From assembly GCA_000004985.1 (NCBI GenBank), contig GG738934.1: DNA of 64,000 nt. One strand, 5' to 3'. Shown here one piece after another: positions 24,001-27,000 of this stretch. Numbering within the stretch: position 1 is the first letter of the stretch; the number at the start of each line of letters is the position of its first letter. Made by a program: the position numbers. This DNA comes from Naegleria gruberi (taxonomy: Eukaryota).

Positions 24001-27000
24001 CAACCATTTGTTTGGAATATTGCTCTGGGAATAAATCCCTAGCTTTACCAATGTAATTACTGTCAGGTCCAAACTTTAAATTTCCATTCAAATCAAGAGT
24101 TGAATGAGTTCCAAGACCATGAACAAGTCCCTTACTATCTGGGGGAACTGGATAGATTAAATGTTTAATCTGATGAGAAGCTCTATATTTGAAGTAGTGT
24201 CCCTTGAAATAATGTAAATGATATTGCTCTGGAAGATTCATACCATTTGTAAAATCTGAATAGGCCAATTCTGCAATTCTTTCAGAATCTAATCCAGCAC
24301 TATTTACAATATTATCAGCAATAACATTCACTCTATCAATTTGACCATGTTGTCCAATACAGCACAATTCCACAAGGAAATTATTATTGTATTGATAAAT
24401 GTTGTGAACTTTGGTATTGTTAATAAATGTTGAATTTTCACTTGATTGAATCATTTCCAACAATCTGGACATTAGAGTGGCCGAGCAAACAATACCAGTG
24501 CTCTGAGAATAGAGAGCCACATCACTTTTAACATTAGGTTCCTTCTCATTCAATTCTTCCTTTGAAATGAATACTAATTTCTTCATTCTTCCTCTCTCAT
24601 CATACTTTTCAAAATTTTCATTACTTTTCCTCTTCATACTATTCAAATATTCAACATCGTGATCATTACTCGAATTGGCAACAATAAACTTGCCAATATT
24701 TCTATAGGGAATATTAAATTCTTCACAAAAATCATATAATAATGAATTTCCCCTGATGCATAATTTAGTTTTCAAACTCTCTGGTTCATAGTACAATCCT
24801 GCATGAATAACTTCACTATTCCGAGCACTTGTTTCCATGCCAATGAATGAATTTCTCTCCACAACAAGAGTTTGATAATCCGACTTGGAAACACTTGATG
24901 ATTTGCTGTTGTTGGCTTCTCTAGATAATCTGGCAGCAATAGCCAATCCAACAACTCCACTTCCAATCACTAGATTTTCAACTCTTATTGTTTCAATGCT
25001 ATTTGATGGAGAAGAAGAGAAAGTTGATGATGAAAATGAAAAATTGAATTCTTGTTGATGTTTAAAAGGGAACCGTGAAGACATTCTCTTCACAGACAAA
25101 GCACTTCCCAATCTTTTCATTTTTTACTTTCAATTTATGAAATAATAATAATAATTTAATTACTAATATTTGTAATAGAGTTCAATTAATAGAATGCAAA
25201 AGTACTGAACTACTATGCATCGTTTTAATTACAAAAAAAATAGAAACCACCCATGTTCTCCAAAGAACGTATTCAAAAGGAAAAGGAACAAAAGAAATCG
25301 TGTCCAAAGGAAGTTACTGCTCGAGTGCCTGGATATCAACTTCGTATTCAGCAAGAGCTAGAAAATCTGGACAAGGAATGGCTCGATCACTTGGTCATTG
25401 CAGATACTAATAAATTGGATAAGATGACTATTACCATTGTTCCAAGTGAAGGAATATGGAAGAATCATCCACATGAATTTGAATTGATCATTCCTCATGA
25501 ATATCCTCATAAAGCACCTAATATTATTTGTAAAACTAGAATTTGGCATCCGAATATTGATGAAAATGGTTTGGTGGATTTGAACTTGAGGTATTTATTC
25601 AAACCAACGATGGGATTGAAGGATTTCTTTGTTGGTGTTCTATTCCTTATGCTTGAGCCCAATCCACTCGATCCACAAAATTATAAGGCTGGAAGGCAGT
25701 TTTTAGATGAACCGGAAGGATTCAAACAAAAGGCAAATAATTACATGAAGGGTATCTACCAGTAGTAAAAGAAGATTTCAATTCATTCGAAGAAGAAAAT
25801 TATAAGCTTGAGTTCATGGCAAGAATATTGTTATTTTTAAAATATTACAAAATTTTAAAAAGACACAAAAATGATTTCCAGAACAAGCTAGATTGGTATG
25901 ATAAAAAAAACATTCACATATTTAATATTCTGTCGTTTAAAAGAAAAAGAAATGATTACAAGAAAGCGTGCCAAAGAAAACGCTGATGATCATCTTATTG
26001 TTGATTCATCAACAGATGATGATGAGACTGTAAAGAAGAGCACTCGTATTCCGAAAAAGAAGGTAAAAAAGACAACAGAAGAACGAATCAAAGAAGTTGC
26101 AGGAGATTCACAAGATAACGATGATGAAATGGTGGACGATGAAGTTGGTGAATCTGGTAAAATCAATACGAAACGTTTATTGGATGTCAGAAGTAAAAGG
26201 GCAAAGAGATTGGATTTTGTAAGTTTTATTCTTGTATAATCATATCATCTGAATTACAAATCAATAATTTAGGAACAAGGGTTTTTCTATTTACCAAAAT
26301 TTGATTGTTACTTACCTAGACCTGTTCTTCATATGATTATGGGATATATTCCTCCATTTCCATACTTTTTGAATATTAGAAGTATTTCACAACAATGGTT
26401 AGATGAATTTGACACTGAACTTTGTCAAAAAGTAAAGGAGCTAGATTTGATTCAAAGATACGATATTAATGATGAAAAAATCAAATACAAATATCCGTGG
26501 TATGATGAGAATACTACCACTATTAGAAACAATGACAGTATAAGATTCTTGGCTTTATTATTCCCAAATGTTGAAAAATTAATGGTGCCAGCTATTGGAT
26601 ATTCCAATGTTAGACTTCCACCCAATGTTTTGAGACTTTTCTCCAAATTACAAACTATGGAGATATTTTACCTTTTACCAATTGCACTTGATCCCACCAA
26701 GAATATTGAAAGAAGAGCTGCTATTACTTACAAACAAGAAATTACAGATATTCAATCAATTACCAATAATAGATACTTAACGCAATTCAGTTCTATCATT
26801 AGAGAGAATGATGATAACTCCAACCTAGTAGCAACAAATGTACTTGTTCCAGAAAATGTTGTTTCTTTATTCACCTATCTTGTTGAGAATGAACACTTTT
26901 CTCTAAGGAGATTGGATATTCTCTCACTACCAAAAATTCTCTACAGCAAAGAATTAATTACTTTCATTTTACAACATACTGAAAAACAAGTCAACCAAGG

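Follow-up and report, generated by a model that had tools for sequence, protein, structure and literature searches.

A UBC12-like protein of Naegleria gruberi with aspartate at the catalytic cysteine position, a candidate pseudo-E2 of the NEDD8 branch

The window analyzed here, meaning the whole 64-kb stretch of Naegleria gruberi DNA, contains a single-exon gene for a relative of UBC12/UBE2M, the conjugating enzyme (E2) of the NEDD8 pathway, in which aspartate occupies the position of the thioester-forming cysteine (Table 1). The encoded protein, P0001, is 100% identical to the public N. gruberi entry EFC36239.1/XP_002668983.1 (NAEGRDRAFT_76085, UniProt D2W3W1), which is named only "predicted protein" and lies on a 97.6-kb scaffold. 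Sequence around the gene is contiguous, with the nearest assembly gap ~19 kb away. At the local base composition, a stop-free frame of 168 codons has a chance probability of ~2e-6, and 0/200,000 shuffles were open. The gene has no introns and, because the protein is collinear with UBC12 from end to end, no room for one. This collinearity, and the lack of any cysteine-containing E2 motif in the other frames, also led us to reject a cysteine hidden by a frameshift or an intron, in agreement with an earlier reading made from the sequence alone (the sequence-only reading), which had held that no splice could restore it. The observation of Asp109 is confirmed and is not a misreading.

Table 1. Positions of the N. 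gruberi gene, its features, and two related metagenomic genes (positions without a contig prefix are those of the window)
Feature	Source	Location	Strand	Basis or remark
Cys-less UBC12-like coding sequence (P0001; 170 aa + TAG, single exon, ATG start)	N. gruberi	25253-25765	+	UQ_con match, PDB matches, AlphaFold2 fold, Foldseek
N-terminal extension, residues 1-26 before the UBC core	N. gruberi	25253-25330	+	MFSKERIQK vs Willaertia MFSKNRIQK; 9/12 first residues identical
TGT codon of Cys93 (NIICKT), noncatalytic strand β4 Cys	N. gruberi	25529-25531	+	near-invariant UBC12 column; aligns with KVKCET of UBE2M
HPN motif, His99-Pro100-Asn101, kept	N. gruberi	25547-25555	+	invariant columns
GAT codon of Asp109, catalytic (thioester) Cys position	N. 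gruberi	25577-25579	+	alignments, codon read; relatives TGT/TGC
Degenerate active-site/L7 segment, residues 110-121, LN-LRYLFKPTMG	N. gruberi	25580-25615	+	one-residue deletion; D115L, W116F, V119T, L120M vs family consensus
EPNPLDPQN loop, residues 135-143; Asn137 and Asp140 kept, Leu142 -> Gln	N. gruberi	25655-25681	+	UBC12 alignment
P0058	uncultured eukaryote; JGI 3300062135, Ga0606108_0042	L005:10001-10546		probable true start, ATG at 10038 (called start, GTG)
Asp (GAT) UBC12-like gene	uncultured eukaryote; JGI 3300073937	L006:82-471		

Sequence, predicted fold, and phylogeny (see below) support the assignment of P0001 to the UBC12/UBE2M lineage, bearing out the collinearity with UBC12 that had been proposed at first reading. 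The Pfam domain UQ_con (PF00179) matches residues 31 to 164 (E = 1.6e-25), as befits the UBC core fold. The best PDB sequence matches are the Ubc12/UBE2M entries 2nvu_C (1.3e-23), 4p5o_I, and 1y8x_A and the yeast entry 3o2u_A, with UBE2F next and UBC13 after it. A model made with AlphaFold2 from 76 aligned sequences has E2 topology with a predicted local distance difference test (pLDDT) score of 88.9, and Ubc12 structures are its top Foldseek matches in the PDB, with template modeling (TM) scores of 0.76 to 0.81.

The active site departs sharply from this pedigree. Alignment to wild-type UBE2M (1y8x_A) places HPNIDENGLVDLN-LRYLFKP of P0001 across the active site, with one residue deleted directly after Asp109, and because Asp109 and Cys111 are paired there, Asp109 occupies the catalytic column, as the sequence-only reading had claimed. 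Within the 76-sequence UBC12 alignment, that column holds Cys in 74 sequences and Asp in 2. Relatives encode the catalytic cysteine as TGT or TGC, from which the GAT of P0001 is two nucleotide changes away; the codon had been read correctly as an unambiguous GAT but placed 3 nt too far downstream, at 25580-25582, which is the TTG of Leu110. The conserved UBC12 active-site/L7 segment is also degenerate (DLN-LRYLFKPTM). Cys93, in the motif NIICKT, was considered as a true or displaced active site and rejected, as it corresponds to a β4 cysteine common to the UBC12 family and present in all catalytic UBC12s too.

Other hallmarks of UBC12 are retained. The HPN motif stands at its invariant columns, as first noticed, and the loop residues Asn137 and Asp140 are presumably equivalent to UbcH5 Asn114 and Asp117. 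P0001 also has the ~26-residue N-terminal extension typical of UBC12, the start of which (MFSKERIQK) is identical to Willaertia UBC12 at 8 of 9 residues, and the AlphaFold2 model places a helix at residues 4 to 16 with low pLDDT. The N-terminal peptide of UBE2M docks on UBA3 and DCN1. By analogy with published work on UBE2M, the extension of P0001 is probably a UBA3/DCN1 docking peptide.

Relatives were sought in three protein searches, all of predicted proteins. A word-index search (E ≤ 1e-10) gave three matches, namely, P0001 itself, P0002 (51% identical), and the UBC12 of Acrasis kona (42%). Searches with the Acrasis protein as query and with a Naegleria-clade/Willaertia profile added the UBC12 of Willaertia magna (P0006; 49% identical) and many canonical UBC12s. 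The Willaertia and Acrasis proteins are 68% identical to each other, compared with the 49% and 42% that P0001 shares with them. Moreover, in an exhaustive representative search P0001 formed its own 50%-identity cluster (next match, 47% identical), and when metagenomes were scanned for closer relatives, the only matches were canonical genes resembling that of Acrasis. P0002, the closest relative, is encoded on a 1.27-kb Logan contig of SRR20330754 that has two tandem UBC12-like genes separated by 137 bp (L001:316-828 and L001:965-1267). The first, P0002, keeps the cysteine within a degenerate active-site segment (CLRVLSVDFNP) and its LEPNP loop contains an insertion; the second ends at HPN, where the contig ends. 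Within ±10 kb of Willaertia UBC12, on either of two contigs, no neighbors are shared with the P0001 locus, and positional orthology is therefore uninformative. In the W. magna assembly GCA_041937235.1, two contigs (L011 and L012) each carry the canonical UBC12 gene, identical in both and flanked by the same neighbors; haplotigs or a recently duplicated segment are the likely explanation.

Neighbor-joining trees pair P0001 with P0002 (99 to 100% bootstrap), and the pair joins Willaertia UBC12 at 0.56 to 0.63, or at 0.89 when residues 105 to 135 are removed. Both P0001 and P0002 have branches roughly double the length of Willaertia's. Because of this grouping, which agrees with the species tree, P0001 sits on an accelerated branch at the position where a Naegleria UBC12 orthologue would be expected, and the phylogeny makes it the probable Naegleria equivalent of Willaertia UBC12 instead of a paralogue from an old side branch. 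At 49 family-conserved columns, P0001 deviates 15 times and P0002 deviates 13 times, against a median of 1.

As judged from the alignment, the divergence of P0001 is patterned, not uniform, and is concentrated in the active-site loop and in helices α2 and α1. Against Willaertia, the N. gruberi protein is identical at 6/14 positions of the active-site/L7 segment, 6/13 of α2, and 6/14 of α1, where the Acrasis protein matches at 13/14, 13/13, and 12/14, respectively. The HPN loop is equally conserved in both comparisons (9/13 each) and is identical at 13/13 positions between P0001 and P0002, while the N-terminal peptide matches Willaertia at 9/12 positions in N. gruberi and 2/12 in Acrasis. A Nei-Gojobori (NG86) comparison of P0001 with P0002 gave a nonsynonymous divergence (dN) of 0.34 and a synonymous divergence (dS) of ~1.7, a ratio of ~0.2 that is only a rough bound because the proportion of synonymous differences (pS = 0.67) is near saturation. 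The ratio indicates purifying selection, on average, along the two branches.

Loss of the cysteine is not confined to N. gruberi. Among 340 UBC12-like proteins, the catalytic column holds Cys in 333 and lacks it in 7. Asp, encoded by GAT in every case, is found in three of the seven: P0001, P0058 (from an 83.7-kb JGI contig), and P0162 (from a JGI contig with 23.5% GC). P0058 has Acrasis-like N and C termini and falls outside the Naegleria and Willaertia clade, and it shares with P0001 the Asp, K34Q, W116F, and a degraded L7 segment. Since Willaertia and P0002 keep the cysteine, the replacements in P0001 and P0058 are independent. The remaining four proteins carry Asn (P0147, from a Ceratiomyxa fruticulosa transcriptome), Gly (P0241, Rumex salicifolius KAL8141153.1), Tyr (P0221, from an ENA contig), or Ser (P0252, from an SRC read set), and none of them exceeds 55% identity with its nearest canonical relative. 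Cys-less UBC12 derivatives may, then, be a scattered but recurrent phenomenon. The repeated appearance of Asp argues for selection over random decay because Asp requires two nucleotide changes from TGT. An alignment with the human ubiquitin E2 variant (UEV) MMS2/UBE2V2 (sequence verified against 1j74_A) is in keeping with this pattern: hhalign pairs its SGMVD(AR) with NGLVD(LN) of P0001, with Asp at the same column, at an overall probability of 26%, a low value that reflects a template made of a single sequence. The proteins P0004 and P0007, considered in case the sample of P0058 also contains a canonical copy, come from other samples.

We lean, by a modest margin over doubt, toward the view that P0001 is a catalytically dead pseudo-E2 that arose from the Naegleria lineage's own UBC12 and acts by noncovalent binding to partners in the NEDD8 pathway. 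P0001 would still fold as an E2, with the HPN loop, the gate-loop Asn and Asp, and the UBC12-specific N-terminal docking peptide in place. Because Asp replaces the nucleophile, and both the segment that follows and α2 are remodeled, P0001 presumably cannot form the thioester by which an E2 takes over NEDD8 from its E1, so that charging would be lost. The N-terminal peptide and the core would dock noncovalently on the NEDD8-activating enzyme NAE/UBA3, on DCN1, and on RBX1-cullin complexes, and P0001 could then serve as an adaptor or a brake, as UEV proteins act without catalysis. Partner binding may thereby have been retained along with a regulatory role. A UEV-like pseudo-E2 derived from the neddylation branch was also what the sequence-only reading had suggested, and sequence, fold, phylogeny, recurrence, and the Asp of MMS2 support that part of its model. 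The literature searched contained no mention of P0001 or of a UBC12-type pseudo-E2 and, on Naegleria, nothing relevant beyond the presence of the COP9 signalosome (CSN).

Several observations weigh against the pseudo-E2 proposal, either as a whole or in its regulatory part. None of the three protein searches found a second N. gruberi UBC12 among predicted proteins, so a pure competitor would lack a target unless one is unannotated. The exact P0001 protein matched no other assembly and no transcript in an exact-sequence look-up. The low dN/dS ratio averages two long branches with dS near saturation and is compatible with the gene having been inactivated recently, either in N. gruberi or in strain NEG-M. 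In addition, α1 forms part of the E1/RING-binding surface, and its divergence means that retained partner binding is not assured. Lastly, Naegleria keeps CSN5 and CSN8 (PMC7531848, PMC4860701), and an active NEDD8 E2 is therefore expected somewhere in the organism. Four other explanations follow; they partly coincide with each other and with the one that we favor.

The strongest of these, which we regard as possible but on balance unlikely, is that a canonical Cys-bearing UBC12 exists in N. gruberi, unannotated or unassembled, and that P0001 is a divergent paralogue acting as its competitor or cofactor. This corresponds to the full model of the sequence-only reading, in which P0001 regulates or competes in cullin neddylation and for which a second, canonical UBC12 was to be looked for. 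The tandem duplicates on the P0002 contig, the expectation raised by CSN, and the restriction of the searches to predicted proteins all speak for such a gene. Against it, even the clade profile, which should have put such a protein among its first matches, returned none; a tblastn comparison detected no second UBC12-like gene within the 64-kb window; and P0001 itself takes the expected orthologue position in the phylogeny. A competitor role presupposes a canonical UBC12, and no such N. gruberi enzyme appeared among the predicted proteins searched.

Marginally less probable, in our estimation, is that P0001 is a relic. Here, the Naegleria lineage would have relaxed the NEDD8 E2 function or passed it on, the nucleophile would have been lost recently, and the reading frame would be functionless but still undisrupted. 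P0002 lends this idea some substance: it bears the cysteine yet is already degenerate at 13/49 conserved columns (including N111R, R113S, W116F, P136L, and N137S), so that relaxation preceded the loss of the cysteine, and the tandem copies on its contig imply that redundancy existed in the clade. The three protein searches returned no orthologue from either N. fowleri or N. lovaniensis, and the failure to match the exact protein in an independent assembly or transcript is also consistent with a relic. However, the reading frame has stayed intact although stops arise readily in DNA this rich in AT, and dN/dS is ~0.2. The N-terminal peptide, the HPN loop, and the β3-β4/L4 region are conserved at canonical levels, with divergence falling on catalytic elements. 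Decay would, moreover, favor single-step replacements such as Tyr, Ser, Gly, Arg, Phe, or Trp, whereas the two-step change from Cys to Asp recurs in independent lineages and is seen in MMS2.

It is highly improbable that the Asp codon stems from a base-call or assembly error or from a null haplotype of a heterozygous strain whose other allele keeps the cysteine. The sequence does come from one public source only, but the change from TGT to GAT takes two adjacent substitutions, the segment around the codon also contains many other changes and a clean 3-nt deletion that keeps the frame, assembly gaps are distant, and two unrelated assemblies carry the same GAT in similarly diverged UBC12-like genes. 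Least credible of all is a P0001 that is still an enzyme, with NEDD8 carried on Cys93 or Cys17 or with unusual chemistry at Asp109, for although two other cysteines, HPN, and the gate-loop Asn137 and Asp140 are present, Cys93 is the family-wide β4 residue discussed above, Cys17 lies in a disordered linker (pLDDT < 50), the surrounding loop is degraded, and we know of no E2 that uses a carboxylate.

Elsewhere in the window, an open reading frame downstream of the UBC12-like gene (start at ~25898 or 25952) appears to enter a GT...AG intron at 26220-26290 (gtaagttt...aatttag). About 3 kb from the P0001 gene, positions 19376-22030 on the minus strand encode an 885-aa Kelch and BTB/POZ protein with the architecture of a CUL3 substrate adaptor, a proximity that is probably coincidental. 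On the plus strand, a 940-aa reading frame at 30122-32941 joins a C-terminal RGS domain to CHASE4 and HAMP, two sensor modules of bacterial type, an architecture unusual for eukaryotes, and a 528-aa reading frame at 3918-5501 contains a MACPF/perforin domain (E = 2e-8). Runs of N at 1184-1954, 44908-44957, 47115-47164, and 61660-64000 are assembly gaps or scaffold-end padding; they explain the apparent very low GC content of the first and last composition bins, for which a biological reading was rejected.

Cullin neddylation by UBC12 is treated as a near-universal and usually essential step in eukaryotes. If the only recognizable UBC12 of an organism truly lacks its nucleophile, then that organism has a hidden second E2, a replacement NEDD8 E2, or a noncatalytic role for the UBC12 scaffold, and all three alternatives are testable in the free-living, culturable N. 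gruberi. A bolder idea, which we hold to be quite unlikely, is that N. gruberi has no thioester-competent UBC12 at all despite its CSN, such that another E2 neddylates cullins or the pathway has been rewired with a noncatalytic UBC12 at its center, and that the repeated change from Cys to Asp (GAT), mirrored in MMS2, is a preferred adaptive route to binding-only "UEVs," making up a NEDD8-branch UEV class. The small set of pseudo-E2s would, if P0001 is one, gain a member from the NEDD8 branch. Together, P0001, the two other Asp variants, and MMS2 form a natural experiment on why Asp replaces the cysteine of an E2.

Comparison with known systems begins with UBC12/UBE2M itself (PDB 1Y8X, 2NVU, 4P5O, and 3O2U), the best match to P0001 in both sequence and structure. 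The two are collinear over residues 5 to 169 and share the N-terminal docking extension, HPN, the EPNPxDP loop, and the conserved β4 cysteine, and P0001 lies beside Willaertia UBC12 in the tree. P0001 differs in the change from Cys to Asp, the one-residue deletion, the replacement of REDW by RYLF after the active site, and the strong divergence of α2 and α1. Engineered UBC12 mutants offer a second parallel. In C111A and C111S (2NVU chain C; dominant-negative C111S), the same position is disabled on the UBC12 scaffold, and these mutants reportedly still dock to NAE without transfer, an experimental precedent for a binding-only UBC12. They are otherwise wild type, however, and C111S captures NEDD8 in an oxyester, an option not open to Asp, whereas in P0001 the neighboring loops have coevolved.

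Natural parallels within the branch are P0058, P0162, P0147, P0241, P0221, and P0252, all of them uncharacterized UBC12-branch proteins without the nucleophile and with identities of ≤55% to the nearest canonical relative. They come from different organisms and represent independent events, and, unlike P0001, most keep the LNILR.DW.P segment intact. Farther afield, the UEV domain of TSG101/Vps23 and other Cys-less UBC folds are likewise noncatalytic binding modules, but TSG101/Vps23 belongs to another clade, has a different architecture and function (ESCRT-I), and shows no specific similarity to P0001.

Finally, the UEVs UBE2V1 and UBE2V2 (Uev1a/MMS2) are E2 folds without the thioester cysteine that act by noncovalent binding and not by catalysis. 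P0001 does not belong to their clade, as evidenced by the absence of any UEV among the best 60 PDB matches listed for it and by the weak alignment with MMS2. Unlike P0001, which derives recently from the NEDD8 E2 and in which HPN and α3-α4 are present, the UEVs form an ancient clade of their own; they have neither HPN nor the two C-terminal helices, and their partner is UBC13. The evidence thus supports P0001 as an addition to a known kind, the Cys-less, UEV-like E2, here on the NEDD8 branch.

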